A stretch of DNA of 42,770 bases from Eubacteriales bacterium (GTDB lineage Bacteria > Bacillota > Clostridia > Oscillospirales > SIG627), in the NCBI GenBank assembly GCA_045576375.1, contig JAZNGI010000025.1, positions 1 to 42,770 of the forward strand, in the 5' to 3' direction. The notes under the pieces were generated by a model. It saw only the letters and a list, made by a program, of their open reading frames with translations. It made no database searches and was not told the origin of the DNA. Of this stretch, positions 1 to 21,543 are shown one piece after another. The stretch's first letter is position 1. Each line of letters starts with the position of its first letter. The translations under genes were made by a program, and so were the position numbers.

Positions 1-1915
1 TCAGTTGGGGCAGGAAGATCTTCCCCGCCTCAAAGAGTTCCCCTGCCCGATCCAGGGCGGGAACGATCCTGCCGTTCACCACCTCCAGGGGGGCTTGGCT
101 TTCCAGTGCCAGGGCGGCGGCCTTTTGCGCCTCTTTTTGCAGGCCGTTTTCCAGGCAGTATTCCAAAGAATATTCCTGCTCCTTCAAGGGAGCATCGCCG
201 GGCTGTGCCTGAGTATAGCAGGAAACGTAATCCGCGCTGTCCTTATCCCAGGCGGCCAAAGCGCGATACGCCCGCACGGCACCCGCCATTGCGGCGTTGT
301 TGGGATTGAGAATGGGGAGATCCAGGCCCGCGTAGAGCGCCATGGTGAGAAAGCTCTGATTGAGAAGCTCTCTTGCGGGCAGACCGAAGGAGATGTTGGA
401 CACTCCCAGCACGGTTTTCACCCCCAGCTTTTCCTTACAAAGCTTCAGCGCCTTCAAGGTCTCCAAGGCGTTTTCCTGGTCGGTGGCGGCGGTGAGGGTG
501 AGACAGTCGATGAACAGATCCCTTCTGGGGATGCCCATCTTATCACAGGCAAGAGCGATCTTTTGGGCAATGGCAAAGCGCCCCTCGGCCTTTTTGGGAA
601 TGCCCTCTTCGTCCAGCGTCAAGCCCACCACGCAAGCGCCGTAGCGCTTCACCAGAGGCAACACGGTTTGTAAGGATTCCTTTTTGCCGTTCACGGAATT
701 CACGATGGCTTTTCCGTTGCACACCCGAAGCCCCGCTTCCAGCGCCTCAGGCGAGGAGGAATCCAACTGGAGGGGAAGATCGCTCACCGATTGAATGGCC
801 TTCACGGCGCGCACCATCATGGCGGCCTCGTCGATTCCCGGCAAGCCCACGTTCACATCTAAGATCTGCGCTCCCGCCCCGGTCTGTTCCACGGCTTGGG
901 AGAGGATATACTCCATATCCCCTGCCAGAAGCGCCTCTTTCATTTTCTTTTTCCCCGTGGGATTGATCCGTTCTCCGATGATACAAGGCCCTTGGATCAC
1001 CACGGTTTTGGTGCCCGAGCAAACGGCGGGCAAAAGCTCTTGCGTTTGGCGAGGACGGGAAAGGCAGGAAAAGCTTTTGCTCAGTTCTCTTTTCACCGCG
1101 GCAATATGCTCGGGAGAGGTGCCGCAGCATCCGCCGAACAGCTTGGCGCCGCAACGGGAAAGAAGGGAAAGCTCCCTTGCAAACTCCTCGGGGCTCAGAC
1201 GGTATTCCCCGCTCACGGGGTCGGGCAAGCCGGCGTTGGGCTTCACGAACACGGGAAGGGCGCTCAAGCGGCAGAGCTTACTCACCAAGGGCGCCAGTTC
1301 CTTGGGGCCCAGGGAGCAGTTGATCCCCAGTGCCGAAGCGCCCAAGCCCTCCAGGGTGAGGACCATTTCCTCGGGAGAGGTGCCCGTGAAGGTTCTGCCG
1401 TTTTCCTCAAAGCTCATGGAGCAGATCACGGGAAGGTCGGTGGTTTCCACGGCGGCCAAAAGCGCCGCCTTCAATTCATAAAGCTCGGTGAAGGTTTCAA
1501 ACACCACCAAATCCGCTCCCTCACTATAAGAGAGCATCTGACGGAAAATATCGTAGGCCTCTTCAAAGCGCAAGGAGCCCGCGGGCTCCATCAACTGTCC
1601 GATGGGGCCGATATCCAGCGCCACCAGCGCCTTGTCACCCGCCGCTTCCTTGGCGATTCTGACGGCAGCGCGGATGACCTCTCCCACCTTTTCCCCGTCC
1701 TTGAGCTTATAGCGGTTGGCACCGAAGGTATTGGTGTAGATCACCTGCGCCCCCGCATCCACATAGCTTTCGTGGATGCTTTTCACAAGCTCGGGCGCAG
1801 TTAAGGACAACAGCACGGGATCTGCCCCCGCCTGCAGACCTTTTTTCTGCAACACGGTGCCCATGGCGCCGTCCAACAGAGCAAAGGGTCGTTGTAACAG
1901 TTCATTCCAGTTCAT
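1..1915 (-). CDS. metH: Cobalamin-dependent methionine synthase MetH, N-terminal ~638 aa (homocysteine-binding, pterin-binding and start of the B12-binding cap). The 3' end runs off the left edge of the window.
   Basis: Absent from the ORF track because it is open to the window edge. My own reverse-strand translation from the ATG at ~1915 reads MNWNELLQRPFALLDGAMGTVLQKKGL...VIYTNTFGANRYKL...GGCCGTSPEHI...IIGERINPTGKK...NVGLPGIDE...LGVSNISFGLP...GKIFLPQL with no stop. A GGGGA Shine-Dalgarno (SD) lies ~7 nt upstream. Confidence 0.9.
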   Translation of the reverse strand, partial: MNWNELLQRPFALLDGAMGTVLQKKGLQAGADPVLLSLTAPELVKSIHESYVDAGAQVIYTNTFGANRYKLKDGEKVGEVIRAAVRIAKEAAGDKALVALDIGPIGQLMEPAGSLRFEEAYDIFRQMLSYSEGADLVVFETFTELYELKAALLAAVETTDLPVICSMSFEENGRTFTGTSPEEMVLTLEGLGASALGINCSLGPKELAPLVSKLCRLSALPVFVKPNAGLPDPVSGEYRLSPEEFARELSLLSRCGAKLFGGCCGTSPEHIAAVKRELSKSFSCLSRPRQTQELLPAVCSGTKTVVIQGPCIIGERINPTGKKKMKEALLAGDMEYILSQAVEQTGAGAQILDVNVGLPGIDEAAMMVRAVKAIQSVSDLPLQLDSSSPEALEAGLRVCNGKAIVNSVNGKKESLQTVLPLVKRYGACVVGLTLDEEGIPKKAEGRFAIAQKIALACDKMGIPRRDLFIDCLTLTAATDQENALETLKALKLCKEKLGVKTVLGVSNISFGLPARELLNQSFLTMALYAGLDLPILNPNNAAMAGAVRAYRALAAWDKDSADYVSCYTQAQPGDAPLKEQEYSLEYCLENGLQKEAQKAAALALESQAPLEVVNGRIVPALDRAGELFEAGKIFLPQL

Positions 1916-1934
1916 CGGATCGTCCCCGTTTTTC

Positions 1935-2540
1935 TTAGGTTTCGTTTTTTATGCCGATCACGGCGGTGACGGTTTTTCTCGGAAGAAGCAAGCCGCCCTC
2001 GGACAGGCTGACTCCCAGGCGGCGCCGGGCATCCAGCACCTGCAAGAGATCTTTTTGGATCGTTAAGCTCAGATCCCCGTAGCCGGGGCTGAAGCGGGAG
2101 GTGGCGTGGGAAGGAGCAACGTTTAAAGAGGAAAGGATCTGTTCCTGGACGTCGTCGCAAAGAAGCTCCGTGAGGGCCGAGGCCACGGCGTCCGCAACCA
2201 TTGCCAGGGCCATATCCTTGGCTTGGGCAATGGCAAGAGCGCTTTCCACGCCCGCCCCCAGGGTGGCGCAGAAAAACGCGGCACGGTCGCAGTCCTTCAA
2301 ATGGGAACGGATGGCGTTTCCCGTGAGGATCAGAGTGCTTCCCCGTGCCCGAATTTTCTCGGCAGAGAACACCAAGGGAAACACCCGAAAGGCGAACGCT
2401 TGGCGAAGCCGCGGGAGCAAAAGAGCCTCCGCCTCTTCAAAGAGAGACAGGCAACAATCCTCGGAAGCGTTTTTCATTTTCAGAAAGCCCCGCGCCATCT
2501 TGCGCCAACGACGGGGATCCGAAAAGATTCTCCCGTCCAT
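1935..2540 (-). CDS. Stand-alone methionine synthase activation (SAM-binding reactivation) domain protein, ~201 aa
   Basis: C-terminal 201 aa of track ORF 1935..2750 (MDGRIFSDPRRWRKMARGFLKMKNASEDCCLSLFEE...FSPGYGDLSLTIQKDLLQVLDA...) resemble the Met_synt_B12 activation domain. The ATG shares one base with the metF stop (TGATG). The track N-terminus (arginine-rich junk) lies inside metF. Confidence 0.75.
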   Translation of the reverse strand: MDGRIFSDPRRWRKMARGFLKMKNASEDCCLSLFEEAEALLLPRLRQAFAFRVFPLVFSAEKIRARGSTLILTGNAIRSHLKDCDRAAFFCATLGAGVESALAIAQAKDMALAMVADAVASALTELLCDDVQEQILSSLNVAPSHATSRFSPGYGDLSLTIQKDLLQVLDARRRLGVSLSEGGLLLPRKTVTAVIGIKNET

Positions 2541-3403
2541 CAGCCGAACAGCTTGCCCACGGCGGCCACGATTTTTCTTGCCACCTCGGGGCGGTTCATG
2601 GTGTACAAATGAATGCCGTCCACTCCGTTGGAAAGAAGATCCACGATCTGATCCACGGCGTAGGCGATGCCCGCGTCTTCCAACGCCTCGGGATTGTCTC
2701 CGTAGCGCTGGAGGATCCGAACGAATTTTGCAGGAAGAGATGCGCCGCAAAGGGTGACCATCCGCTGGATCTGCTTACTGTTGGTCACGGGCATGATCCC
2801 CGCCTCAATGGGAACGTTGATCCCCGCGATGCGGCAACGTTCACAAAAGGAATAGAAGGCAGTGTTATCAAAGAAGAGCTGGCTGATCAGATGCTCCGCT
2901 CCCGCCTCCACCTTCTTTTTCAGATTCAAAACGTCCTCCACCGCATCCTCCGCCTCGGTGTGCACCTCGGGATAGCAGGCGCCGCTGACGTGGAAATCAC
3001 CGCGGGACTTCACGTAGGCCACCAGGTCGCAGGCGTGGGAGAACACGTGCTTGGGCTCCACGTCGGGACTGCGGTCTCCCCGCAGGGCGAGAATATTTTC
3101 CACTCCGCTGGCCTGCAGGCTTTTGAGCACCTCGTCGATCTCATGGGCATCGTGGCTCAGGCAGGTCAGATGGGCCATGGTTTCCAGCCCATAACGGTTT
3201 TTGATGGCATCCGCGATCTGCACGGTGGTGCCCTTGGCACCGCTGCCGTTGGCGCCGTAAGTCACGCTGATAAACGCAGGCTTCAGATCGGAAAGCTCCT
3301 CAATGGTGGAAAACACGCTTTGAATGGATCCGTCTCTTTTGGGAGGAAAGATCTCAAAAGAAAGGATCTGGCGGGATTGGGAAAACAGTTGACTGATCTT
3401 CAT
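2540..3403 (-). CDS. metF: 5,10-methylenetetrahydrofolate reductase MetF
   Basis: Track ORF 2540..3499. The likely true start is MKISQLFSQSRQILSFEIFPPKRDG, preceded by an AAGAGG SD. MTHFR hallmarks present: SVTYGANGS, HLTC, LALRGD, GACYPEVH, HLYTMN. Confidence 0.9.
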   Translation of the reverse strand: MKISQLFSQSRQILSFEIFPPKRDGSIQSVFSTIEELSDLKPAFISVTYGANGSGAKGTTVQIADAIKNRYGLETMAHLTCLSHDAHEIDEVLKSLQASGVENILALRGDRSPDVEPKHVFSHACDLVAYVKSRGDFHVSGACYPEVHTEAEDAVEDVLNLKKKVEAGAEHLISQLFFDNTAFYSFCERCRIAGINVPIEAGIMPVTNSKQIQRMVTLCGASLPAKFVRILQRYGDNPEALEDAGIAYAVDQIVDLLSNGVDGIHLYTMNRPEVARKIVAAVGKLFG

Positions 3404-3489
3404 TTTCAACCTCTTTTTTGAAAAGAGAGAGGAGCGCAAAAAAGCAGTCCTCTCGATCCATAGTATCGTTACCGATGATAGTTTCCAAC

Positions 3490-3518
3490 AGTATACCACG
3501 ATCCCGGAAAAAAATCAA
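3490..3518 (-). promoter_or_regulatory. Putative SigA promoter of the metF/activation-domain/metH operon
   Basis: Minus strand reads TTGATT, 17 nt, TATACT, about 80 nt upstream of the metF ATG. Confidence 0.5.
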
Positions 3519-3630
3519 TTCTTTTCCATAAATTTGCAAGCGAAAACCCGCCGGAATCCCCGTTTCGGAGAAACCGTCCCCGATTTTATAAAAAAACGAG
3601 AAATTATTTTTACATTTTTTGCTTTTCATG

Positions 3631-3659
3631 TTGACTTCTATGGAAAAAACTGATAAAAT
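3631..3659 (+). promoter_or_regulatory. SigA promoter of fba
   Basis: TTGACT (3631-3636), 17 nt, TAAAAT (3654-3659). AAAGGAG SD ~8 nt before the ATG at 3698. Confidence 0.65.
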
Positions 3660-3697
3660 ATCAGAAGAAAAATCTATGTTTAAAGGAGATTACGAAT

Positions 3698-4633
3698 ATG
3701 CCACTGGTTAGTTCCAAAGAAATGTTCGAGAAGGCATACAAGGGCGGATACGCCATCGGTGCTTTCAACGTAAATAACATGGAGATCATCCAAGGTATCA
3801 CCGAGGCCGCCAAGGAAGAGAACGCTCCCGTTATTCTTCAGGTTTCCTCCGGCGCAAGAAAGTACGCAAACCGTACCTACCTTGTAAAGCTGGTTGAGGC
3901 CGCTATCATCGAGACCGGTCTTCCCATCTGCCTGCACCTGGATCACGGCGACACCTTCGAGCTGTGCAAGTCCTGCGTGGACGACGGCTTCACCTCCGTT
4001 ATGATCGACGCTTCCAGCAAGTCCTTTGAGGACAACATCGCTCTCACCAAGCAGGTGGTGGAATACGCTCACGCTCACGGCGTTACCGTTGAGGCAGAGC
4101 TTGGCACGCTGGCCGGCGTGGAAGACGACGTGAACGTTTCCGCAGAGGACAGCTCCTACACCCGTCCCGAGGACGTTCAGGAGTTCGTTGAGAGAACCGG
4201 TTGCGACTCCTTGGCCATTGCCATCGGCACCAGCCACGGCGCTTACAAGTTTAAGCCCGGCACCAAGCCCCAGCTGAGATTTGACATTCTGGAGGATGTT
4301 TCCAAGCGTCTTCCCGGCTTCCCCATCGTTCTCCACGGCTCTTCTTCCGTTCCCCAGGAATACGTGAAGATGATCAACGAGAACGGCGGTAACATGCCCG
4401 GCGCCATCGGTATTCCCGAGGATCAGCTTCGCCAGGCCGCAAGAAGCTCCGTTTGCAAGATCAACATCGACTCTGACCTTCGTCTGGCTCTCACCGGTAC
4501 CATCCGCAAGTACTTCAACGACAACCCCGCAGAATTTGACCCCAGAAAGTACCTCGGACCCGCAAGAGAGAACATCAAGCAGATCGTTAAGCACAAGCTG
4601 GTTAACGTTCTGGGCTGCAACGGCAAGGCATAA
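3698..4633 (+). CDS. fba: Class II fructose-1,6-bisphosphate aldolase
   Basis: 311 aa. MPLVSSKEMFEKAYKGGYAIGAFNVNNME..., LHLDHG, GTSHGAYKF, VLHGSSSVP are typical class II FBA motifs. Confidence 0.95.
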   Translation: MPLVSSKEMFEKAYKGGYAIGAFNVNNMEIIQGITEAAKEENAPVILQVSSGARKYANRTYLVKLVEAAIIETGLPICLHLDHGDTFELCKSCVDDGFTSVMIDASSKSFEDNIALTKQVVEYAHAHGVTVEAELGTLAGVEDDVNVSAEDSSYTRPEDVQEFVERTGCDSLAIAIGTSHGAYKFKPGTKPQLRFDILEDVSKRLPGFPIVLHGSSSVPQEYVKMINENGGNMPGAIGIPEDQLRQAARSSVCKINIDSDLRLALTGTIRKYFNDNPAEFDPRKYLGPARENIKQIVKHKLVNVLGCNGKA

Positions 4634-4653
4634 ACTCACGGCAAGTTGGGATC

Positions 4654-4682
4654 GGAAGGCAAAAGCCTTCCTATCTTTTTTT
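4654..4682 (+). terminator. Rho-independent terminator of fba
   Basis: GGAAGGC-aaaa-GCCTTCC followed by a TATCTTTTTTT run. Confidence 0.8.
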
Positions 4683-4692
4683 ACATTTTCGG

Positions 4693-4721
4693 TTGCAAAA
4701 AAGAGATTCCTATGATATAAT
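4693..4721 (+). promoter_or_regulatory. SigA promoter of alaA (extended -10)
   Basis: TTGCAA, 17 nt containing TG, then TATAAT (4716-4721). Confidence 0.7.
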
Positions 4722-4759
4722 ATTTATTGTCATTATTTTTTGAAAAAGGAGGAAGCACA

Positions 4760-5974
4760 GTGAGCTCACATAAGATAGCACGGCGCATGGAAAACGTTCA
4801 TTCGGACATTCGCGGCCCGATCTACGTGGAAGCAATGAAAATGCGCGAGCGGGGCATCGACGTTCTGCGGCTGAACACCGGCAATCCCGCTACCTTCGGC
4901 TTCACAATGCCCGACAGTATTCAACAAGCACTTTTTGAAGGTGCGAAAAACGCGGTCGCATACTGCGATCCCAAAGGAATGCCTGCCGCGCGAGCGGCCA
5001 TCTGCTCTTATCACCGAAACAAGCAAGTGAACGGCATCACCGAGGACGACGTGTTCGTGGGCAACGGTGTGAGCGAGCTGGTTCCTTTTGCAATGCAAAC
5101 GGTGGTGTACATCGGCGACGAGGTGTTGGTTCCCTCCCCCAGTTATTCCCTGTGGACCAACTCCGTGTATCTTTCCGACGCCACTCCCGTGTTCTACACC
5201 TGCGACGAAAGCTCCAATTGGTATCCCGACATTGAGGATATCCGCCAAAAGATCACTCCCAAAACCAAGGCCATCGTGATTATCAACCCCAACAATCCCA
5301 CGGGCGCCCTTTATCCCCGCGAGTTGTTGGAGCAGATCGTGGCGTTGGCAGAGGAGCACGATCTGACCATTTTTTCCGACGAGATCTACGACCGTCTCGT
5401 TTTCAACGACAAGGAGCACGTTGCCACCGCTTCTCTTACGGACAAGCAGTTGGTGATTACCCTCAACGGACTTTCCAAGTCCCACGTGATCTGCGGCTTC
5501 CGCGTGGGTTGGATGGTGGCCAGCGGCCCCAAGGGCTTGGTGGAGGAATTTAAGAACGGCGCGTTCAAGCTTTGCTCCATGCGCCTGTGCTCCAACGCTT
5601 TGGGGCAATCGGTGATTCCCGCTGCTCTGGAGGACGAGCTGAGCACCCGAGAGATGATCGTTCCCGGAGGCAGACTCTACGAACAGAGCAAGGCAACGGT
5701 GGAAGAACTGCAGAAGATCGAAGGGATCAGCGTGATCCCCAACGACGCCGCCTTCTACGTGTTCCCCAAGCTTGACAAAAAACGCTTCCACATTGAAAAC
5801 GACAAGGAATTCGCCTTGGGTCTCCTGCGAGCCAAGAACATTCTGATCGTTCCCGGAAGCGGCTTCGACTGGCCCCACAACGATCACTTCCGCATCGTGA
5901 TGCTTCCCCAACCCGAAACCCTTCGTCAAGCGGTGCGGGATATGGGAGAGTATCTGAAAACAAGAGAAGCCTGA
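4760..5974 (+). CDS. alaA: Glutamate-pyruvate (alanine) aminotransferase, AlaA/YfbQ family, PLP-dependent
   Basis: Near-colinear similarity by recall to E. coli AlaA: ENVHSDIRGP, LNTGNPATFGF, GNGVSEL, INPNNPTGALY, NGLSKSH, GGRLYEQ, DHFRIV. I place the start at GTG 4760, 7 nt after AAGGAGG, not at the track TTG 4727. Confidence 0.85.
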   Translation: MSSHKIARRMENVHSDIRGPIYVEAMKMRERGIDVLRLNTGNPATFGFTMPDSIQQALFEGAKNAVAYCDPKGMPAARAAICSYHRNKQVNGITEDDVFVGNGVSELVPFAMQTVVYIGDEVLVPSPSYSLWTNSVYLSDATPVFYTCDESSNWYPDIEDIRQKITPKTKAIVIINPNNPTGALYPRELLEQIVALAEEHDLTIFSDEIYDRLVFNDKEHVATASLTDKQLVITLNGLSKSHVICGFRVGWMVASGPKGLVEEFKNGAFKLCSMRLCSNALGQSVIPAALEDELSTREMIVPGGRLYEQSKATVEELQKIEGISVIPNDAAFYVFPKLDKKRFHIENDKEFALGLLRAKNILIVPGSGFDWPHNDHFRIVMLPQPETLRQAVRDMGEYLKTREA

Positions 5975-7293: not shown

Positions 7294-7312
7294 ATTTGCT
7301 CAAAACCTTTCT

Positions 7313-7344
7313 TTCGGGGATCCCCCAAACGAGAGATCCCCGAA
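7313..7344 (-). other. Intercistronic stem-loop between the flavoprotein gene and the permease gene
   Basis: A 10-bp stem TTCGGGGATC/GATCCCCGAA with a 12-nt loop. There is no adjacent U-run on the minus strand, so it is more likely a processing or stability element or a weak attenuator than a full terminator. Confidence 0.5.
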
Positions 7345-7364
7345 GCAATCAAATATTCCTATGT

Positions 7365-8990
7365 TTAGAAATCCTTCTTCTGAAATTCGGGGTTGCCGTG
7401 AGAATAGTTGGGAAGAAGCTTGGGAGAAACCACTTTGGGCTCGATGCCGGCTTCCTTCAACTGCTTCTCAAAGGCTTCCACGTGCTCCAGGGTGAGCTTG
7501 CCCGTCTCCTTGATGGTGGCGGCCTTTGCGGAAGCGCTCTTACCGGCATTTCTGCCAAATACGATGATATCCAACAGAGAGTTACCCATCAGACGGTTTC
7601 TGCCGTGAATACCGCCTACAGCCTCACCGGCAACGAACAGGTTCTCCACGCCGCTCATACCGTCGGCAGAGATGTCGATACCGCCGTTCTGATAGTGGAG
7701 GGTGGGATACACCAGGATGGGCTCCTTGCGGATGTCGATGTTATGCTTAGCAAACATTCTCATCATGGCGGGGATTCTCTTCTCGATGGTGCCCTCGCCG
7801 TTCTTCAGCTCGATCATGGGCGTATCCAGCCACAGACCGACGCCCTGTGCAGTCTCCACACCGTTGCCGCGGTCGGAGCACTCACGAATGATGGAGGCGG
7901 CGGAAACGTCGCGGGTCTCCAGAGGATGCATGAACACTTCGCCGTTCACGTTCACCAGCTTTGCGCCCAGAGAACGGACCTTCTCGGTCACCAAAGCGCC
8001 GAAGATCTGCTCGGGATATGCAACGCCGGTGGGATGGTACTGCAGAGTATCGGCGTAGAGCAGCTTTGCGCCCACGCGGTATGCCAGCACCAGGCCGTCT
8101 GCGGTGGCACCGTAATGGTTGGAGGTGGGGAATCCCTGATAGTGCAGTCTGCCCGCACCGCCGGTGGCGATGATGACCGTCTTGGCTCTGGCGATCTTGA
8201 TCTGGCGGGTTTCCATATTCATCAAAACCGCGCCTGCCGCCTTGCCGTTTTCGTCAAGGATCAGCTCGATGGCCGCGGTGAAATCCACCACGGGGATGCC
8301 TCTGTTGAGCACTTCGTCACGAAGAGTACGCATGATCTCCGCGCCGGAATAGTCCTTGGCGGCGTGCATTCTCTTTCTGGAGGTACCGCCGCCGTGGGTG
8401 GTGACCATGGTGCCGTCTTCCATCTTGTCAAACTCCACGCCCAGATTGCTCAGCCACTGAATGGCCTCGGGAGCTTCGTTCACCAAACGGTACAGCAGCT
8501 CGGGCTTTGCGGCAAAGTGTCCGCCGCCGAACGCATCCAGATAGTGCTGAGCGGGAGAATCGTTGGGCTTATCCGCCGCCTGAATGCCGCCCTCTGCCAT
8601 CATGGTGTTGGCATCGCCGATTCTCAGCTTCGTGACGATCATGGTCTTAGCGCCGCCGTTATCTGCCTCGATGGCCGCGGAAGAGCCTGCTCCGCCGCCG
8701 CCGATCACCAGAACGTCCACGTCGTAATCCACCTTGGAAAGGTCGATGTCCATATCCTTCACGCGGCTGTTGGCCTGGAGGAGCTCTGCCAATTCCAGAG
8801 GAACCTTCTCTCCCTTGTTGGGGCCCACGGTCAGAACGGCAAATTCGCTCTGCTTATAATCGGGATGGTAGGTTGCCAGGAGCTTTTCCTTCTCCTCGGC
8901 TGTCATTCTTCTGGGTTCCAGGACAGCGTTTGCTTCTCTTGCCGCCTCCACCTTCTTGATGGAGTCAAGCATATTTTGATTGGTATACAT
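7365..8990 (-). CDS. Fumarate reductase/succinate dehydrogenase-type flavoprotein (FrdA/SdhA/TfrA-like). Soluble, predicted non-covalent FAD.
   Basis: 541 aa. Dinucleotide fold VDVLVIGGGGAGSSAA, AEGGIQAA (no His at the covalent-FAD position), LQYHPTG, ETRDVSAASI, GGIHGRNRLMGNSLLD. GGAGGA SD 6 nt upstream. Confidence 0.85.
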   Translation of the reverse strand: MYTNQNMLDSIKKVEAAREANAVLEPRRMTAEEKEKLLATYHPDYKQSEFAVLTVGPNKGEKVPLELAELLQANSRVKDMDIDLSKVDYDVDVLVIGGGGAGSSAAIEADNGGAKTMIVTKLRIGDANTMMAEGGIQAADKPNDSPAQHYLDAFGGGHFAAKPELLYRLVNEAPEAIQWLSNLGVEFDKMEDGTMVTTHGGGTSRKRMHAAKDYSGAEIMRTLRDEVLNRGIPVVDFTAAIELILDENGKAAGAVLMNMETRQIKIARAKTVIIATGGAGRLHYQGFPTSNHYGATADGLVLAYRVGAKLLYADTLQYHPTGVAYPEQIFGALVTEKVRSLGAKLVNVNGEVFMHPLETRDVSAASIIRECSDRGNGVETAQGVGLWLDTPMIELKNGEGTIEKRIPAMMRMFAKHNIDIRKEPILVYPTLHYQNGGIDISADGMSGVENLFVAGEAVGGIHGRNRLMGNSLLDIIVFGRNAGKSASAKAATIKETGKLTLEHVEAFEKQLKEAGIEPKVVSPKLLPNYSHGNPEFQKKDF

Positions 8991-9002
8991 CTTCGCTCCT
9001 CC

Positions 9003-9677
9003 TTACTTCTCGATCTCTCTGTTGTTATAGAGTTCCTTCATTTCAGCGACGGGCTTTTGCATGATCGCTTCCATCAGATCCTTGAAGGTGCCGTCCTTGA
9101 TCTCCTGAACACGGTTGTCAAGGTGCTCGCACTTGGGAGCCAGATACTTACCGTTGATTCTTCTGGCAAGCATGGCCACCTGAGGATGAGAAATTCCGGC
9201 GGGGCAACGGGAAGAGCAAACGCCGCACATCACGCAGTCAAAGCTCTCCTCGGCGCACTTTTCAAACTCGCCTCTCTGAGCGTAGGCAATGTACTGCATC
9301 ACGTTCAGGCTCTGGGTGCAGCTCTTGGTGCAGGCGTTGCAGCCGATGCAACTGTAGATCTCGGGATAGAGCTGCATCATCACCGCCTGGGTGGCGGGGA
9401 TCTTTTCAACGTCGAACACCTTTTTCACCAGGGGGAAGAAGGGCAGCGTGGCAACGTACATGCCTTCCTGCACCTTGGTCTCGCAAGCCAGACAAGCCTT
9501 CAGCTCCACCTGGCCGTGAATGCGGTAGATGGTAGCGCAGGCACCGCAGAAGCCGTTACGGCAGCCGCATCCGCGAACAAGCTGATAGCCGGCGTATTCC
9601 ATCGCCGTCATAATGGTGAGATTGGAGGGCACGCTGTACTGCTTGCCCATCAAATATACTTTTACCATATCTTCCAT
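9003..9677 (-). CDS. SdhB/FrdB/TfrB-like iron-sulfur subunit (2Fe-2S plus two Cys4 cluster motifs)
   Basis: 224 aa. CRNGFCGAC...C (2Fe-2S pattern C-x4-C-x2-C-xn-C), CIGCNACTKSC and CVMCGVCSSRCP. Confidence 0.8.
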   Translation of the reverse strand: MEDMVKVYLMGKQYSVPSNLTIMTAMEYAGYQLVRGCGCRNGFCGACATIYRIHGQVELKACLACETKVQEGMYVATLPFFPLVKKVFDVEKIPATQAVMMQLYPEIYSCIGCNACTKSCTQSLNVMQYIAYAQRGEFEKCAEESFDCVMCGVCSSRCPAGISHPQVAMLARRINGKYLAPKCEHLDNRVQEIKDGTFKDLMEAIMQKPVAEMKELYNNREIEK

Positions 9678-9701: not shown

Positions 9702-10529
9702 TCAATATTCAGCGGGCAGCTGCTCCAGCTGATCGCAACGGAACACGGGGCCGTCTTTGCAGATATACTTGGAGCCGATGTTGCATCTGCCGCACTTGCC
9801 GATTCCGCACTTCATTCTCATTTCCATGGTGGTGTAGACCTGGTTTTTCACAAAGCCCAGCTCCACCAGTCCCGCCAAAGTGAATTTGATCATAATGGGG
9901 GGACCACAGATGATGACGGTTTTGTTTACGTCAAAGCCCAGCTCCTTCACGTAGTTGGGAACGAAGCCCACGTGGCCTTCCCATCCCTCCTGAGGACGGT
10001 CGATGGTGAGGTACACGTTGATATCCTCGCCCTTCACCCACTCGTTAACGATCTCGGGATAATCCACCAGATCGTCCGCACTGCGGGAGCCGTAAACAAT
10101 GTCGATGTGACCGTAGTTGGCGCGATTGTCGCGGCAATAGTTGATCACGGAGCGCAGAGGCGCCAGACCGATACCGCCGGCAACGAACACCAGATCCTTG
10201 TGCTTGAAATCGCTTTCCACGGGGAACCCGTTGCCGTAGGGACCGCGGATGGTGATCTGCTGACCTGCTTCCATGCGGTGGAGCCAATTGGTGAGGCAGC
10301 CGCACTTTTTAATGCTGAATTCCATGAACTCGCGGTTGGTGGGAGAAGAGGTGATGGAGAACATGGCCTCCCCCACGCCGGGAATGGACAGCATGGCGCA
10401 CTGTCCGGGAATATGTTCAAAGGGTTTCTTACCGTCCAGACCCACCACGCGGAAGGTTTTCACGTCGGGCGTGTCCACTCGCACGTCGGTCACGACGCCC
10501 AGGATCGGTACGAGTACGTTTTCATTCAT
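9702..10529 (-). CDS. FlxA-like FAD/NAD(P)H-binding oxidoreductase with C-terminal 2Fe-2S (PyrK / AsrB / sulfhydrogenase gamma family)
   Basis: 275 aa. FNR-like motifs (AMFSITSSP, FVAGGIGLAPLRS) and a C-terminal CGIGKCGRCNIGSKYICKDGPVF. The start overlaps the upstream stop (TGATG). Confidence 0.8.
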   Translation of the reverse strand: MNENVLVPILGVVTDVRVDTPDVKTFRVVGLDGKKPFEHIPGQCAMLSIPGVGEAMFSITSSPTNREFMEFSIKKCGCLTNWLHRMEAGQQITIRGPYGNGFPVESDFKHKDLVFVAGGIGLAPLRSVINYCRDNRANYGHIDIVYGSRSADDLVDYPEIVNEWVKGEDINVYLTIDRPQEGWEGHVGFVPNYVKELGFDVNKTVIICGPPIMIKFTLAGLVELGFVKNQVYTTMEMRMKCGIGKCGRCNIGSKYICKDGPVFRCDQLEQLPAEY

Positions 10530-11560
10530 CAGTTCTTACCTCCCAACGCTTTGATGACCTTAACAATGTTGAGGGATACGGGACATTTCTTCAGGCAACG
10601 TCCGCAACCGACACAGGAGAATTCTCCTTGGTTGTTCTTGGGGAAATACACCAGCTTGTGCATAAATCTCTGACGGAAGCGCTCCATCTGCGTGGTGCGG
10701 GGATTGTGACCTGCCGCCTGAGTGAACTCAGAGTACATACAGGAGTCCCAGCAACGGAAACGGGTGACGCTCTTGCCGTTGTCAAAATCGCGGATATCGT
10801 AGCACTGACAGGTGGGACAAACAAAGGTGCAGGTGCCGCAACCCAGACAAGCCTCGGAAAGCTCCTCCCATTTTTCGGATCGGAACATTTCCAATTCACT
10901 TGCCTCGCCGAAGGCACTCACGTCCAGATCGCTGTAGGGCAGACGGTCCACGATAGCCTTGATCTGCGCCTTGGTGTCTTCCAGGGCCTTTTCATCGGCG
11001 GCATTCGTCTCAGTCAGTGCGTCTTTCAGCGCCTTCAGAAGCGCCTCGCCCTTCTCGGTGTTGGCGTTGAGCATCATCTCGTCGCCCACGATGGTGGCGC
11101 TCACGTCGCCGCCGGGCTGAGAAGCATCCACGCCGAAGACCTTACAAAAGCAAGTTTCCTCGGGCTCGTTACAGCTAAGGGTCACTACCGTGCCGTTTTC
11201 TCTGCGACTGCGGTAGAGAGCATCCACGGGCTCGGAGAGGAACACACGGTCCAGCACCTCAAAGCTCTTGGCGTCGCAGGCGCGCACGCCGAAGAGGACG
11301 AAGGGATCGTCGCAGGTGGGCAGAGCCTCCACGCTGATCTCGTTCTTGTTCAGATGAAAGCGGGCGTAGCACTCGCTCTGAGGGAAGAAGAGATCCTTGG
11401 GAGATTTCACGGTGTGAAGGGCATCCAAACGCACCTTCTCGCCGGCAGACCACTGATAAAACTGAACCTGACCTGCCTTTTCGATGGGCAGATACAAGGT
11501 TTTTCCTTGGCTGATCAGCTCAAACAGGCTGTCAAGCCGGGTAAGAGAGATCTTCATCAT
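10529..11560 (-). CDS. FlxB-like 4Fe-4S protein (AsrA / sulfhydrogenase beta family)
   Basis: 343 aa. CLGCGTCTFVCPTCQCYD and CVGCGRCLKKCP. ATGA overlap with the upstream gene. GGGGAGG SD. Confidence 0.75.
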   Translation of the reverse strand: MMKISLTRLDSLFELISQGKTLYLPIEKAGQVQFYQWSAGEKVRLDALHTVKSPKDLFFPQSECYARFHLNKNEISVEALPTCDDPFVLFGVRACDAKSFEVLDRVFLSEPVDALYRSRRENGTVVTLSCNEPEETCFCKVFGVDASQPGGDVSATIVGDEMMLNANTEKGEALLKALKDALTETNAADEKALEDTKAQIKAIVDRLPYSDLDVSAFGEASELEMFRSEKWEELSEACLGCGTCTFVCPTCQCYDIRDFDNGKSVTRFRCWDSCMYSEFTQAAGHNPRTTQMERFRQRFMHKLVYFPKNNQGEFSCVGCGRCLKKCPVSLNIVKVIKALGGKN

Positions 11561-12540
11561 CCGTTATTACCTCCCCTTTCGTGTACAATGGAGGGTTCCG
11601 CATCGTTCTTGTCAAAGTCCATCACGGGAGATCTGCCCGCATCGGTCTCTCCCGCCTGATATTCACCGTAGAGCTCGTTGATATCCTTGATGAACTTGCG
11701 GTTAAGCAGGTGCAGAGGGATCTTCTCGGGACACACGCGGGAGCACTCGCCGCAGTCGGTGCAACGGCCCGCCACGTGGAAGGCGCGAATGATGTGGAAC
11801 ATATTCTCTTCAAAGGTGTCGCTGTTAGCTTTGGAGGCGATGCCGGAGTTATCGTTGTCGAACACGCACTTTTCGCAGGTGCAGGCAGGACAAGCGTTAC
11901 GGCAGGCGTTGCAACGGATACACTTGGAAAGCTCGCTTCTCCAGAAAGCAAAGCGCTCCTCGGAGCTCATCTTCTCCAGGGCGGCGACCTTTTCGAAGCG
12001 GTCGTTACGGGCGGGAGCTTCCTCGTCGGCACAGATCAGCTCGTCATAGATCACGTGCTTTCCGCCGCGGCAAACGGTGCATCTGCCGAGAACGGCGCTC
12101 TTTCTGGGAAGGGTCTTGGTACCGTAGAGAGTCTCCACGGTGAGAGTCTCCCCGTCGTCCTTCACGGAGGTGATTCCCTTGATGCCCTGGGCGCGGATCA
12201 GATCAATATCCACCATTCCGGGGCAACCGATGCCCAAAACGTAGATCTTACTGCGATCCACTCGGTGCTCGGTGAGAAGCTGATTCAGACTGTAGGAATC
12301 ACAGGGCTTAAGACAAACCAGGATCTTTCCCTCTTTTTTGGCTTCCTTCACCAGATACTTGGAGAGATTGGCACCGCAGAAGGAATCGAACACAAAGTCC
12401 TCCAGCTCCTCTGCCGTTTCAAACACGGCGGGGCTGTTGTCGTAGAAAAACTCGCCCCGTTTCCAACCGAGAGCACGGTCAACGGTTTTATTCTCCAGCA
12501 GTTGGAGAATTTTATTTTTGATCAGTTCTGTTCTTTGCAT
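11557..12540 (-). CDS. FlxC-like 2x[4Fe-4S] protein with FrhB-like N-terminal region
   Basis: 327 aa. CIRCNACRNACPACTCEKC and CTDCGECSRVCP. GGAGGA SD. The start lies 19 nt inside the mvhD 3' end. Confidence 0.7.
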   Translation of the reverse strand: MQRTELIKNKILQLLENKTVDRALGWKRGEFFYDNSPAVFETAEELEDFVFDSFCGANLSKYLVKEAKKEGKILVCLKPCDSYSLNQLLTEHRVDRSKIYVLGIGCPGMVDIDLIRAQGIKGITSVKDDGETLTVETLYGTKTLPRKSAVLGRCTVCRGGKHVIYDELICADEEAPARNDRFEKVAALEKMSSEERFAFWRSELSKCIRCNACRNACPACTCEKCVFDNDNSGIASKANSDTFEENMFHIIRAFHVAGRCTDCGECSRVCPEKIPLHLLNRKFIKDINELYGEYQAGETDAGRSPVMDFDKNDAEPSIVHERGGNNG

Positions 12541-12971
12541 CGCAGATCCTCCAACTTCTTATTTTCTCCCAAGGCGGTGACCTGGGCCACGAAATCGTTC
12601 ATAACGTTGGCAAACTTTGCGCCTTCGGCGGCAGAAACCCATTCCACACGGGTGCGTTCTCTTTCAATGCCCAGATAATCCAGCATGCTGAAAAGAAGCG
12701 TCATTCTTCTTCTGGCATAGTAGTTACCGGTGGAATAGTGGCAGTCGCCGGGGTGGCATCCGCAAAGAATGACTCCGTCGGCGCCTCTCTGGAAGGCGCG
12801 GAGAATGAACATCGGGTTCACTCTGCAGGAACAGGGAACGCGGATGATCTTCACCTCTGCGGGATAGGTCATTCGGCCCGATCCGGCAAGGTCAGCGCCC
12901 GCATAGCTGCACCAGTTGCAGCAGAAAGCCACGATCAGAGGCTTGAATTCTTTCTTTTCTTCTATTTGCAT
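12522..12971 (-). CDS. mvhD: MvhD/FlxD-like 2Fe-2S electron-transfer protein (methyl-viologen-reducing hydrogenase delta subunit family)
   Basis: True start MQIEEKKEFKPLIVAFCCNWCSYAGADLAG...RVPCSCRV...ILCGCHPGDCHY is a typical MvhD cysteine pattern. The track N-terminal extension lies inside hdrA. 10-nt overlap with the hdrA stop. Confidence 0.85.
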   Translation of the reverse strand: MQIEEKKEFKPLIVAFCCNWCSYAGADLAGSGRMTYPAEVKIIRVPCSCRVNPMFILRAFQRGADGVILCGCHPGDCHYSTGNYYARRRMTLLFSMLDYLGIERERTRVEWVSAAEGAKFANVMNDFVAQVTALGENKKLEDLRCKEQN

Positions 12972-14947
12972 ATTGCGTCTACCTCCGACATAATCTGTCT
13001 GTTGCTGAAGCCCTTCAGGTCCATTGCACCGGAGGTGCAAGCCACGGTGCAGGCACCGCAACCCTGGCACACGGCGGGGTTCACGGATGCGACTCTGCGC
13101 ACCACCATCTTACCCGCAATGCGGAATTCCTTCTCGGAATAGGTGATGGCGCCGTAGGGGCAGACCTTTTCACAGCAGGAACAGCCGTTACACAGCATTT
13201 CATCGCTGGATGCCACGCAGGGGTTTCCTAACAGCTTATCCTTGCAAAGCAAGCCGATGACCTTTCCTGCGGCGGCACCTGCCTGAGCCACGGTCTCGGG
13301 AATGTCCTTGGGACCCTGGCACACACCGGACAGGAACACGCCTGCGGTGGGGCTTTCCACGGGACGGAGCTTGGGATGAGCCTCGGTGAAGAAATCGTTG
13401 GTGTCCATGCTGGCGGTGAGCATCGTTGCCAGGGGACGGGCGCTCTTATCGGGCTCGATGGCAGTTGCCAGAACCACCATGTCAGCCTTGATCTGCATCT
13501 GCTCGCCGGCGATCAGATCGCTGGCCTGAACCAAAAGCTGATCTCCCTCAGGGGAAACCTTGCCTACCATGCCCTTGATGTAATGAACGCCGTATTTCTC
13601 CACGGCACGGCGGTAGAACTCGTCAAAGCCCTTGCCGGGAGTTCTCACGTCGATGTAGAATACGTACACCTCGGTGTCGGGATACTTTTCTCTGGTAAGC
13701 ATTGCGTGCTTGGCGGTATACATACAGCAGATCTTGGAGCAATACTCCTTGCCGCAGCTACGGGTGTCACGGCTTCCCACGCACTGCACGAACACGATGG
13801 TATGGGGATGCTTTCCGTCGGAAGGACGCAACAGGGTTCCCGCGGTGGGGCCGGCGGCGTTCATCAGACGCTCGTACTCCAGGGAGGTGACCACGTCCTT
13901 GGACTTATTGTAGGAATACTCGCCGAACTTATCGGGCTTGATGGGATTGAAGCCGGTGGCCACGACGATGGCGCCGTACTTCTCTTCCACGATCTCGTCC
14001 TTCTGCGTGTAATCAATGGCCTTTGCCTGGCACACCTTGGCGCAGACGCCGCATTTTCCCGTTTTCAGCATGGTGCAATGATCGGGATCAATGGTGGCTA
14101 CCTTGGGAACAGCCTGAGCAAAGGGGATGTAGATGGCGCGGCGGGTGTCCATTCCCATATTGAATTCGTTGGGAACCTTTTTCTGAGGACATTTGTTGGT
14201 GCAGTCGCCGCAACCGGTACACAAGTCGGTGTTGACAAAGCGGGCTTTCTTGCGGATCTTCACGGAGAAATTACCCACGAAGCCCTTCACCTCGTCTACC
14301 TCACTGTAGGAGTAGATCTTAATCTTTTCGTGCTGAGCCGCATCCACCATTTTGGGGGTGAGAATGCAGGCGGCACAGTCCAGCGTGGGGAAGGTTTTAT
14401 CCAGCTGAGCCATTTTTCCGCCGATGGTGGGCTGTTTTTCCACGATGTCCACTTCGAAGCCCGCGTCGGCAATGTCAAGAGCGGTCTGGATGCCGGCGAT
14501 ACCGCCGCCGATCACCAGGGCGCGCTTGGTTACGGGGGACTCCCCTGCTTGCAGAGGAACGTTGAGATTCACTTTCGCAACGGCGGCCTTTCCGAGAATA
14601 ATCGCCTTTTCGGTGCCCTCGGGCATATCCTTGTGGATCCAGGAGCATTGCTCACGGATGTTGGCGATCTCCACCATATAGGGGTTCAGACCTGCGGCCT
14701 GAGCGGTCTTACGGAAGGTGGCCTCGTGCATTCTGGGAGAGCAGGAGCAGACCACGATACCCGTCAAGCGATGCTCGGCAATGGCATCCTTAATGACCTT
14801 CTGGCCCGCCTCGGAGCACATGTACTGATAATCGGTGGAGAAAACGACACCGGGCTCGTTTTTCAACGCTTCCGCCACCGCGTGTACGTCTACGGTTCCG
14901 GCAATATTACTGCCGCACCAGCAGACAAAAACGCCAATTCTTTGCAT
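12962..14947 (-). CDS. hdrA: Heterodisulfide reductase subunit A-like flavoprotein (bifurcating-type FAD plus multiple 4Fe-4S)
   Basis: 661 aa. MQRIGVFVCWCGSNIAG, ALVIGGGIAGIQTALDIA, CTGCGDCTNKCP, CGVCAKVC, FVQCVGSRD, CNGCSCCEKVCP, CQGCGACTVAC. Confidence 0.9.
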   Translation of the reverse strand: MQRIGVFVCWCGSNIAGTVDVHAVAEALKNEPGVVFSTDYQYMCSEAGQKVIKDAIAEHRLTGIVVCSCSPRMHEATFRKTAQAAGLNPYMVEIANIREQCSWIHKDMPEGTEKAIILGKAAVAKVNLNVPLQAGESPVTKRALVIGGGIAGIQTALDIADAGFEVDIVEKQPTIGGKMAQLDKTFPTLDCAACILTPKMVDAAQHEKIKIYSYSEVDEVKGFVGNFSVKIRKKARFVNTDLCTGCGDCTNKCPQKKVPNEFNMGMDTRRAIYIPFAQAVPKVATIDPDHCTMLKTGKCGVCAKVCQAKAIDYTQKDEIVEEKYGAIVVATGFNPIKPDKFGEYSYNKSKDVVTSLEYERLMNAAGPTAGTLLRPSDGKHPHTIVFVQCVGSRDTRSCGKEYCSKICCMYTAKHAMLTREKYPDTEVYVFYIDVRTPGKGFDEFYRRAVEKYGVHYIKGMVGKVSPEGDQLLVQASDLIAGEQMQIKADMVVLATAIEPDKSARPLATMLTASMDTNDFFTEAHPKLRPVESPTAGVFLSGVCQGPKDIPETVAQAGAAAGKVIGLLCKDKLLGNPCVASSDEMLCNGCSCCEKVCPYGAITYSEKEFRIAGKMVVRRVASVNPAVCQGCGACTVACTSGAMDLKGFSNRQIMSEVDAICK

Positions 14948-14962: not shown

Positions 14963-15355
14963 TTATTTGGAATATTTCCGGAACGCGCTGACCAAAGCCT
15001 GCTGAGGCATTTGGTCGTCCAACAGCGCGGGGATCTGCTCGGGCACAAGATGGTTCTCGCCCTGACGGCGGATCTTCAAAACACGGATGGCTTCAATGAT
15101 GTTGGTGGGCTCCACCTGGCGGGGGCAACGCTCCACGCAGGCAAAGCAGGACATACAGCGGTAGAAGGCGTCGGAATTCATGATGCCCTCGATCTGACCT
15201 TTTTCGGCAAGGTAGACAAACTCATGGGGCAGATATTCCATCTCTCCGTAGGCGGGACAGGTTGCGGAGCACTTGCCGCAACGCATACATTTCTTGGCAT
15301 CCACGCCGCTGATGCGCTGGATCTCCTGTGCGGTATGAAGGTTTTTTTCGTTCAT
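14963..15355 (-). CDS. hdrC: Heterodisulfide reductase subunit C-like 2x[4Fe-4S] protein
   Basis: Start MNEKNLHT after a GGGGGAG SD. CMRCGKCSATCP and CMSCFACVERCP. Confidence 0.85.
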   Translation of the reverse strand: MNEKNLHTAQEIQRISGVDAKKCMRCGKCSATCPAYGEMEYLPHEFVYLAEKGQIEGIMNSDAFYRCMSCFACVERCPRQVEPTNIIEAIRVLKIRRQGENHLVPEQIPALLDDQMPQQALVSAFRKYSK

Positions 15356-15366
15356 TCTTCTCCCCC

Positions 15367-16149
15367 TCACTTAACACCCAGGGCTTCGGCAAGAAGCTCT
15401 GTGAAATAATAAACGGGAAGCTGAGTGCCCTCTGCGTTCTTGGTCAGATTATACATACACAGGGGGCAGGCGGTGATGAGCATTTGCGCACCGTTGGCAT
15501 CCGCGGAACGGACGATGGTGCTGCTCTTGTCCTGTGCCAGCTTCTTTGCCTCCAGGGCAACATAGCCGCCGCAGCATTCGTTGCGGTAGGGATACTCCAC
15601 GCTCTCGGCGCCGATGGCGCGGATGAAATCCTCCATCACGCAAGGATCGCCGGGATCGTCAAATTCCATGACACTGCCGGGTCTGAGAAGCATACAGCCG
15701 TAGTATGCACCGATCTTCTTGCCCGTCAGAGGATTCACTACCTTCTTTTTCAGCTCCTCAAAGCCGATGCGGTCACGAAGGATCTCCAAAAAGTGGAGCA
15801 CCTTGGTTTGGCCGGTGTAGGGCGTGTCAAGCTGAAGGTAGTTGTTTGCTTTTTCGCAAATTTCAGGATCGTTTGCCATATCGTCATTCACGCGTTTGAG
15901 CACGTGGTGGCAGGCGGAGCAAAGGGTGACCAGCTCTCTGCCGTTATCTCTGGCATCGGCCAGAGCACGGACGGAAGAAAGCTTGGTGGCAATTTCATCC
16001 CTCGCCAGAGGATACACGCCGCCGCAGCACTGCCAATCCTTGATCTCTTCCAATTGGAAGCCCAAGGCCTCTGCACTGCGTCTGGCATACTCATCCAACT
16101 GTTTTGCTTTCGTTTTCAGGGTACATCCCGGATAATAGCTGAATACCAT
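15367..16149 (-). CDS. hdrB: Heterodisulfide reductase subunit B-like protein with two intact CCG domains
   Basis: 260 aa. YYPGC...WQCCGG...CSAC and YYGC...NECCGG...CPLC, i.e. two complete CCG cysteine motifs. Confidence 0.9.
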   Translation of the reverse strand: MVFSYYPGCTLKTKAKQLDEYARRSAEALGFQLEEIKDWQCCGGVYPLARDEIATKLSSVRALADARDNGRELVTLCSACHHVLKRVNDDMANDPEICEKANNYLQLDTPYTGQTKVLHFLEILRDRIGFEELKKKVVNPLTGKKIGAYYGCMLLRPGSVMEFDDPGDPCVMEDFIRAIGAESVEYPYRNECCGGYVALEAKKLAQDKSSTIVRSADANGAQMLITACPLCMYNLTKNAEGTQLPVYYFTELLAEALGVK

Positions 16150-21519: not shown

Positions 21520-21543
21520 TCCCCAAGGAGTGTTTTCTTTTCC

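Follow-up and report, generated by a model that had tools for sequence, protein, structure and literature searches.

Where does a fumarate reductase that has no membrane anchor genes take its electrons from? The question is raised by a gene pair of an Eubacteriales bacterium, found on contig JAZNGI010000025.1 of assembly GCA_045576375.1, a gut-type metagenome-assembled genome of 1.57 Mb that is 94% complete. The 42,770 nucleotides of this contig are called the window below. Positions 7365-9677 are fully occupied by two minus-strand open reading frames, frdA (P0001, 8990-7365) and frdB (P0002, 9677-9003), which encode a flavoprotein resembling FrdA and an iron-sulfur protein resembling FrdB. 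We conclude with good confidence that FrdBA is a soluble module that reduces fumarate in cooperation with heterodisulfide reductase (Hdr) proteins. That it forms the fumarate-reducing end of an NADH-fed, HdrA-based complex, cytoplasmic, quinone-independent and coupled to ferredoxin reduction, is the reading we favor, with less assurance.

The features of the gene pair are as follows.

7365-8990, minus strand: FrdA-like flavoprotein P0001, 541 aa; limited to flavin adenine dinucleotide (FAD)-binding and capping domains, to which an N-terminal domain of 90 aa and a C-terminal tail of 50 aa are added
9003-9677, minus strand: FrdB-like iron-sulfur subunit P0002, 224 aa; Fer2_4 and Fer4 Pfam matches, two-cluster ferredoxin domain
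8721-8990, minus strand: N-terminal extension, FrdA residues 1-90; helices at residues 5-23, 31-41 and 65-71, strands at 50-52 and 62-64
7368-7520, minus strand: C-terminal tail of FrdA, residues 491-541; motif SPxLLPxY, no Pfam match
8607-8609, minus strand: Asn128 codon; in alignments with 7d6v_A and 1nek_A this residue falls on the histidine that forms 8-alpha-N3-histidyl-FAD in SdhA/FrdA
8998-9004, minus strand: Shine-Dalgarno sequence AAGGAGG of frdA, 7 nt before the ATG at 8990, overlapping the frdB stop codon

A complete fumarate site and no flavin-linking histidine

The sole Pfam match of FrdA was PF00890 (FAD_binding_2), which covers residues 92-472; the C-terminal helical domain Succ_DH_flav_C was not found in the protein by the Pfam search. 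The GxGxxG motif corresponds to G97-G99-G102. An initial annotation of this DNA had remarked that the Rossmann fold starts unusually late, and alignments with PDB chains bore this out, residues 4-7 of E. coli FrdA and SdhA being matched there by residues 89-90 of the present protein. The same annotation had noted that the signatures of the fumarate site are kept. They are found as YHPTG (H319), VTEKVR (T335, E336, R339), ETRD (R360), LHYQNGG (H432) and HGRNRLMGNSLLD (R466). Among these, the dicarboxylate-binding and proton-donor residues (H319, T335-E336, R360, H432 and R466) align with those of E. coli SdhA. In an alignment of 80 FrdA-type family members from 80 genome loci, H319, T321, T335, E336, R339, R360, H432 and R466 were each invariant (80/80). 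Structural comparison with Foldseek gave E. coli quinol:fumarate reductase FrdA (1kf6_A) and M. smegmatis Sdh1 (7d6v_A) as the best fold matches of the AlphaFold2 models, with TM values of 0.65-0.69 over approximately 450 columns.

The histidine that carries FAD covalently in membrane enzymes is missing, as had been suspected. The FrdA segment ANTMMAEGG corresponds to AHTVMAEGG in M. smegmatis Sdh1 and to SHTVSAQGG in E. coli SdhA (1nek_A), so that Asn128 stands in place of the linking residue, and it is Asn in 80 of 80 family members. A histidine shifted by some residues was looked for in the sequence, in the PDB alignments and in the family alignment, and this candidate was rejected: none is near Asn128 except H149, which pairs with a histidine of both SdhA chains, and these have the linking histidine in addition. 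The flavinylation factor SdhE/Sdh5 was not found in the genome; this factor is also absent from many bacteria. In soluble fumarate reductases and in E. coli FrdA His44 mutants, FAD is bound non-covalently, and these enzymes reduce fumarate and barely oxidise succinate. FAD bound in this way is a typical trait of fumarate reductases that run in one direction, which argues against succinate oxidation by FrdA.

An iron-sulfur partner with twelve invariant cysteines

The cysteines of FrdB fall into three sets: a [2Fe-2S] set, C39/C44/C47/C65; motif I, C110-x2-C113-x2-C116-x3-C120; and motif II, C148-x2-C151-x2-C154-x3-C158-P. All 12 were invariant in the 79 FrdB sequences of the family, and could supply the ligands of one [2Fe-2S] cluster and two [4Fe-4S] clusters. 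The complete four-cysteine motif that had been noticed for the third cluster is motif II, and it is thus a constant feature of the family. By motif order only, motif II would be the counterpart of the three-cysteine [3Fe-4S] motif of SdhB, since similarity to SdhB and TfrB is weak. Measured against NCBIfam profiles, whose curated cut-offs are used throughout, FrdB scored 30.3 bits with TIGR00384 (SdhB/FrdB, cut-off 88) and 34.9 bits with the TfrB model NF004898 (cut-off 385), of which only positions 19-148 were matched. No CCG domain was found in FrdB.

The representative search retrieved a natural single-chain fusion of 727 aa (P0129), which consists of an FrdB-like part, the N-terminal extension and an FrdA-like part. 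This arrangement indicates that FrdB and FrdA are obligate partners, and within the complex the FrdB C-terminus probably lies close to the N-terminal domain of FrdA.

FrdBA is embedded in an Flx-Hdr operon

The two genes belong to an 11-gene operon of the minus strand with the order fumC-hdrBCA-mvhD-flxCBA-frdBA-AAE permease. Its other members are listed below in order of transcription.

16206-17576, minus strand: FumC, class II fumarate hydratase, first operon gene; TIGR00979, 719.6 bits against a cut-off of 664.75
15367-16149, minus strand: HdrB/SdhE-like CCG protein; PF02754 twice, aligns with PDB HdrB chains
14963-15370, minus strand: HdrC-like protein with two [4Fe-4S] sites; TIGR03290, Fer4
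12962-14947, minus strand: HdrA, full length, of the methanogen MvhAGD-HdrABC type; NF040770 HdrA2, 805 bits
12522-12971, minus strand: MvhD/FlxD [2Fe-2S] subunit; PF02662 FlpD, E = 3e-55; probable start ATG at 12971
11557-12540, minus strand: FlxC-like iron-sulfur subunit; Fer4 dicluster matches
10529-11560, minus strand: FlxB-like iron-sulfur subunit (AsrA/HydB/ShyB type); PF17179 Fer4_22, NF040829
9702-10529, minus strand: FlxA-like NAD(P)H-binding flavoprotein with a [2Fe-2S] site (AsrB/HydG type); PF00175, PF00970, PF10418, NF006220, TIGR02911
6034-7293, minus strand: AAE-family permease with two Asp-Al_Ex repeats, last operon gene; PF06826 twice, TIGR01625

All seven FlxABCD-HdrABC subunits are therefore present with their domains. 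HdrA can be aligned along its whole length (residues 3-658, 709 bits) with 5odc_A, the bifurcating HdrA of the methanogen MvhAGD-HdrABC complex. For HdrB, the best NCBIfam match was NF042965 SdhE, the so-called membrane anchor subunit of the Campylobacter-type 8-methylmenaquinol:fumarate reductase (148 bits), followed by TIGR03288, HdrB proper (126 bits); both scores are far below the cut-offs. The TfrB model is covered piecewise by three proteins of the operon, namely FrdB (19-148), HdrC (117-220) and HdrB (265-487). This coverage and the SdhE-leaning score of HdrB fit a direct contact between FrdB and HdrBC.

Elsewhere in the genome, RnfC was detected above its cut-off, and P0001 was the only full PF00890 protein. 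Neither NadA nor DsrC was found in this 94%-complete genome.

HdrBC is the nearly constant partner across loci

Synteny was scored in 51 related loci having at least 9 kb of upstream flank, and neighbour genes were sought within 10 kb. FrdB was adjacent in 51 of 51 loci. Some Hdr gene was found near FrdBA in 43 of them, HdrA in 41, HdrB together with HdrC in 39, FlxABC in 34 and FumC in 20. Complete operons were seen again in gut Clostridia and in Treponema, and HdrC-HdrB-FrdB-FrdA cores without Flx were found in Chloroflexi, Thermoplasmata, Bathyarchaeota, Theionarchaea and others. Because such cores recur, the constant partner of the FrdBA family is HdrBC(A), and the electron-input module varies. 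The loci thus support the proposal, made earlier from the window, that the pair is a soluble reductase with no anchor and belongs with an Hdr/Flx module. Its further description as linked to a low-potential carrier is supported by this context and agrees with published hypotheses.

At eight loci (L024, L052, L056, L058, L063, L066, L070 and L076), FrdB-FrdA stands without Hdr or Flx within 10 kb upstream, and the electron donor may be encoded elsewhere in the genome. Two records labelled Bacteroidaceae and Bacteroides uniformis (L006, L013) carry a full operon of the Clostridia type with 76% FrdA identity, and L013 adjoins the Treponema copies in the tree described below; mis-binned contigs or a recent horizontal transfer could be the cause.

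The distribution was surveyed in 399 genomes drawn evenly from the Clostridia (217 genera), with a homologue threshold of E <= 1e-120. An FrdA homologue was present in 99 genomes and 55 genera, the full-length matches having 65-86% identity. Close homologues are therefore found in about a quarter of the sampled Clostridia species.

FrdA forms a clade of its own

Among curated models, the TfrA profile NF004900 gave the best score with FrdA, 333.8 bits for a cut-off of 718. The match runs over model positions 6-426 of 546, and the C-terminal third of TfrA has no counterpart. The SdhA/FrdA equivalogs all remained below their cut-offs, TIGR01812 (sdhA_frdA) reaching 274.0 bits for 567.3, and the NadB profile TIGR00551 reached 263.9 bits for 452.75.

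A quick maximum-likelihood tree was computed using IQ-TREE, with NadB as outgroup and branch support given by the Shimodaira-Hasegawa-like approximate likelihood ratio test (SH-aLRT). The family bearing the extension groups with a clade of extension-less proteins of about 400 aa (SH-aLRT 99). TfrA-like and Sdh1-like flavoproteins form a separate clade (SH-aLRT 95), the label TfrA-like standing in this tree for best matches that are themselves below the TfrA cut-off. Judged by profiles and tree, FrdA is neither TfrA, NadB nor a classical SdhA/FrdA, and belongs to its own clade. An identity as NadB (L-aspartate oxidase) was rejected: the cut-off is missed, NadA is missing, and NadB lies in a separate clade.

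The pair had first been described as having archaeal TfrAB-like features. This stands insofar as TfrA is the best-scoring curated model, and is only partly right because all curated cut-offs are missed and an own clade is formed; the C-terminal third of TfrA and the CCG domain of TfrB are missing as well.

The flavoproteins of about 400 aa in the sister clade have neither the N-terminal extension nor the C-terminal tail. Two of their loci were examined, in Miltoncostaea marina and in a related metagenome contig (L089:7001-10205 and L090:7001-10208). There the flavoprotein gene follows a LysR regulator and appears to share an operon with ComA (phosphosulfolactate synthase) and ATP sulfurylase, and no Fe-S partner or Hdr was found at these two loci. 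The sister-clade flavoprotein could be a reductase for a sulfonated enoate.

The N-terminal extension is an ordered domain

Since residues 89-90 pair with residues 4-7 of FrdA/SdhA, approximately 90 N-terminal residues are extra, and the extension is real. A mis-called frdA start was considered and rejected: the Shine-Dalgarno sequence is strong, the N-terminus is conserved (M1, Y2), and invariant residues (R18, H42-P43-D44, G56 and G60) are found throughout the extension. No conserved internal start, which would have made the extension an artefact, came out of this analysis. Homologues of 531-541 aa with 82-94% identity span 98-100% of the query (the FrdA proteins of the cultivable Clostridium leptum, Solibaculum mannosilyticum and Phocea massiliensis are 85-87% identical), and the extension is kept in distant full-length relatives (41-58% identity), with the motif LLxxxHPDY...GxNxGE..P.EL. 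The four sequence observations made on the flavoprotein are thus properties of the whole family.

AlphaFold2 was run on FrdA alone and on a read-through FrdB-FrdA chain, the latter giving an overall predicted local distance difference test score (pLDDT) of 85.7 and a predicted TM-score (pTM) of 0.87. The pLDDT of the extension was 88-97 with FrdA modelled alone and 74-98 in the read-through chain. As it reached such values on FrdA alone, the extension is predicted to be an integral ordered domain and no floppy arm. Neither the extension nor the C-terminal tail had a significant Pfam or PDB sequence match, the best (E = 0.047, cytochrome f) being taken as chance. When both models were submitted to Foldseek, only the FrdA core of about 450 residues was aligned, and the extension was matched by no solved structure.

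The C-terminal tail, in which H503, P523, P527 and Y529 are invariant, sits where SdhA/FrdA have their helical and C-terminal domains. The tail is missing in several distant relatives that bear the extension (P0137, P0138, P0141, P0146 and P0167). The N-terminal domain and the short tail are integral to the FrdA family and probably fill the room that the absent helical domain would occupy.

The initial annotation had offered the extension as a candidate docking element for the Hdr/Flx module. The models and loci do not support this as stated: the extension is conserved in loci without Flx and in the eight loci without an Hdr gene within 10 kb. It is also missing in the sister clade, two loci of which have no Fe-S or Hdr partner. 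Taken as a whole, this pattern (presence at Flx-less loci, folding alone, absence from the sister clade, partnerless at the two loci examined) agrees weakly with the extension helping to bind a partner.

How electrons could reach fumarate

The following path can be proposed for the reading that we favor, a fumarate reductase fed by NADH and coupled to ferredoxin reduction. FumC would convert malate to fumarate. FlxA would accept electrons from NADH, and FlxB, FlxC and MvhD/FlxD would carry them to the flavin of HdrA, where the electron pair would be split. One electron would go downhill, through HdrC, HdrB/SdhE and the three FrdB clusters to the non-covalent FAD of FrdA and on to fumarate (about +30 mV), and the other uphill to ferredoxin. 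The net reaction would be 2 NADH + fumarate + 2 Fd(ox) -> 2 NAD+ + succinate + 2 Fd(red). From the reduced ferredoxin Rnf would generate an ion gradient, and succinate would leave the cell through the AAE permease, a candidate exporter. We infer that the nine redox proteins form one complex, and the order of electron transfer and bifurcation itself are likewise inferred.

Several points weigh against this proposal. No purification or assay of such an enzyme was found by full-text searches of the literature. Eight of the 51 loci have FrdBA and no Hdr gene within 10 kb. HdrB retains both complete CCG motifs (C9...C41C42...C77xxC80 and C152...C192C193...C228xxC231). In methanogens, CCG motifs are the disulfide-reducing site, which leaves room for a thiol/disulfide intermediate. 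Finally, the soluble fumarate reductase FrdABCDE of Hydrogenobacter thermophilus is not described as ferredoxin-coupled or bifurcating in the paper that cites its purification (Miura 2008).

This last enzyme brings us to the alternative that survives best, although we consider it unlikely: a plain, non-bifurcating soluble NADH:fumarate reductase, in which Flx and Hdr are a mere wire from NADH to FrdAB and no ferredoxin is reduced. A precedent exists, the H. thermophilus enzyme having been purified, according to the citing paper, as a soluble, NADH-dependent and irreversible fumarate reductase of five subunits (Miura 2008). A table quoted from the citing paper gives -58 kJ/mol for the transfer from NADH to fumarate, which is strongly exergonic. 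Models for Blautia luti also assume an NADH-dependent enzyme, the only fumarate reductase activity measured in that work being methyl-viologen-dependent. However, a full-length HdrA with both ferredoxin domains, alignable with 5odc_A, would be a costly wire, and Rnf is present to use reduced ferredoxin. In Pseudoclostridium thermosuccinogenes, moreover, H2 inhibits succinate formation, an effect read by the authors as ferredoxin coupling (PMC7282089).

Still less probable, in our estimate, is a relay in two steps, where Flx-Hdr reduces a disulfide (small molecule or protein) at HdrB, and FrdAB with a CCG protein re-oxidises the thiol, as a split TfrAB-like enzyme. The two CCG motifs of HdrB and the piecewise coverage of the TfrB model are in line with it, and the model proposed for Endoriftia allows a DsrC-like carrier. 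On the other side, the genome has no DsrC and the operon no gene for a thiol carrier, FrdB lacks a CCG domain, and with a single HdrB it would be hard to reduce and re-oxidise one couple with a gain.

That FrdA acts on a different substrate, such as L-aspartate or an unsaturated or sulfonated acid other than fumarate, or that the complex works in reverse, oxidising succinate with ferredoxin-driven confurcation, is very improbable: a NadB score near those of the Sdh/Frd models (263.9 versus 274 bits), a sister clade beside ComA and ATP sulfurylase, so that substrate shifts do occur in the superfamily, and one locus from a Syntrophobacterales metagenome-assembled genome are outweighed by FumC as first operon gene in 20 loci, the absence of NadA, the position of NadB in a separate outgroup clade (SH-aLRT 99), the invariance of all fumarate-site residues and, for the reverse direction, the non-covalent FAD.

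Comparison with known systems

The closest parallel to the bifurcating fumarate reductase proposed here is the 'succinate operon' of P. thermosuccinogenes, another member of the Clostridia, which makes succinate. This operon comprises a fumarate hydratase, seven Flx-Hdr genes, two Frd genes and a putative transporter, and is transcribed and regulated (PMC7282089). Its authors propose that fumarate reduction is tied via Flx-Hdr to ferredoxin reduction, and suggest that the last gene, for a hypothetical protein, may encode a succinic acid transporter; they cite a preprint (10.20944/preprints201912.0288.v1, Koendjbiharie & van Kranenburg 2019). Likened by the published description, the gene order and the proposed function are the same as in our window. 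Evidence for that system comes solely from genome context, transcriptomics and fermentation balances; it does not include a purified enzyme. A complex of this type, with fumarase, Hdr, Flx, Frd and exporter in one operon, has thus already been put forward by others as a hypothetical bifurcating fumarate reductase.

In tubeworm symbionts, putative tfrAB genes are interspersed with flxABCD-hdrABC, and it was independently proposed that their products receive electrons directly from that bifurcating complex, which co-expression supports (Rubin-Blum 2019, PMC6315080; Mitchell 2024, PMC11636981). By this description, TfrAB is there likewise an anchor-less AB-type enzyme among Flx-Hdr genes. The setting differs, being that of an autotrophic reductive tricarboxylic acid cycle in Gammaproteobacteria, with OGOR in a flxABCD-hdrABC/korABCD cluster.

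The TfrAB of Methanothermobacter is also soluble and has the same FAD-binding and capping core, and its [2Fe-2S], [4Fe-4S] and CCG-type clusters recur in the overall system. In contrast to it, FrdA has an extra N-terminal domain of 90 aa, has no helical C-terminal domain and belongs to a different clade. The CCG (HdrB-like) half is fused within the TfrB of Methanothermobacter, whereas HdrB is a separate protein here, and the predicted donor is NADH via Flx-HdrA instead of CoM-SH/CoB-SH.

The same seven-subunit input and bifurcation module is found in FlxABCD-HdrABC of Desulfovibrio vulgaris, an NADH dehydrogenase/heterodisulfide reductase reportedly described by Ramos et al. in 2015. For sulfate reducers, the disulfide of DsrC has been proposed as the high-potential acceptor, whereas here DsrC is missing and FrdBA and FumC are in the operon instead. 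The H. thermophilus FrdABCDE, as it appears in the citing paper, is likewise cytoplasmic and multi-subunit, with an FrdAB core, and has five subunits versus nine redox proteins here. Finally, E. coli FrdABCD/SdhABCD and M. smegmatis Sdh1 have the same catalytic residues and the same three-cluster logic in the B subunit. Unlike these membrane-bound quinol:fumarate and succinate:quinone reductases, the present system has no anchor genes, an Asn for the FAD-linking histidine, no helical and C-terminal domains, and a four-cysteine motif for the third cluster.

Surroundings of the operon

The 71-nt spacer between frdA and the AAE permease gene contains a GC-rich inverted repeat, GGGGATC...GATCCCC, at 7300-7345 on the minus strand, which may be an intercistronic hairpin or an attenuator before the transporter gene. 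The flanks of the operon (1-5974 and 20119-22836) encode a split methionine synthase with MetF, a class II fructose-bisphosphate aldolase, an alanine-type aminotransferase, asparaginyl-tRNA synthetase and a type Ic aspartate aminotransferase. Through the flanking aminotransferases, oxaloacetate or aspartate could enter the reductive branch.

Implications for fermentation in Clostridia

Relative to the published hypothesis, four elements are new: the status of the FrdA family as a separate clade, which has an invariant N-terminal domain and a C-terminal tail of its own; an Asn without exception at the flavinylation site, next to an all-cysteine, three-cluster partner; the near constancy of HdrBC as partner and the variability of the input module; and the distribution across 99 of 399 genomes.

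A bolder proposition can be built on these elements, and we hold it to be about evenly balanced between true and false. The operon would encode a true flavin-based electron-bifurcating fumarate reductase and, together with Rnf, would sustain a quinone-free 'fumarate respiration' in about a quarter of Clostridia species and in scattered Spirochaetes, Chloroflexi and archaea, the N-terminal domain (R18, HPD, GxNKG) and the SPxLLPxY tail serving to plug a minimal FrdA onto an HdrBC/FrdB wire. If this is true, fumarate would be added to the few proven high-potential acceptors in HdrA-type bifurcation. For many gut and rumen Clostridia, making succinate would then conserve energy and not be a simple NADH sink. 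The reduced ferredoxin would feed Rnf and an ion gradient would be built, so that the ATP yield and the hydrogen balance in models of these communities would change.

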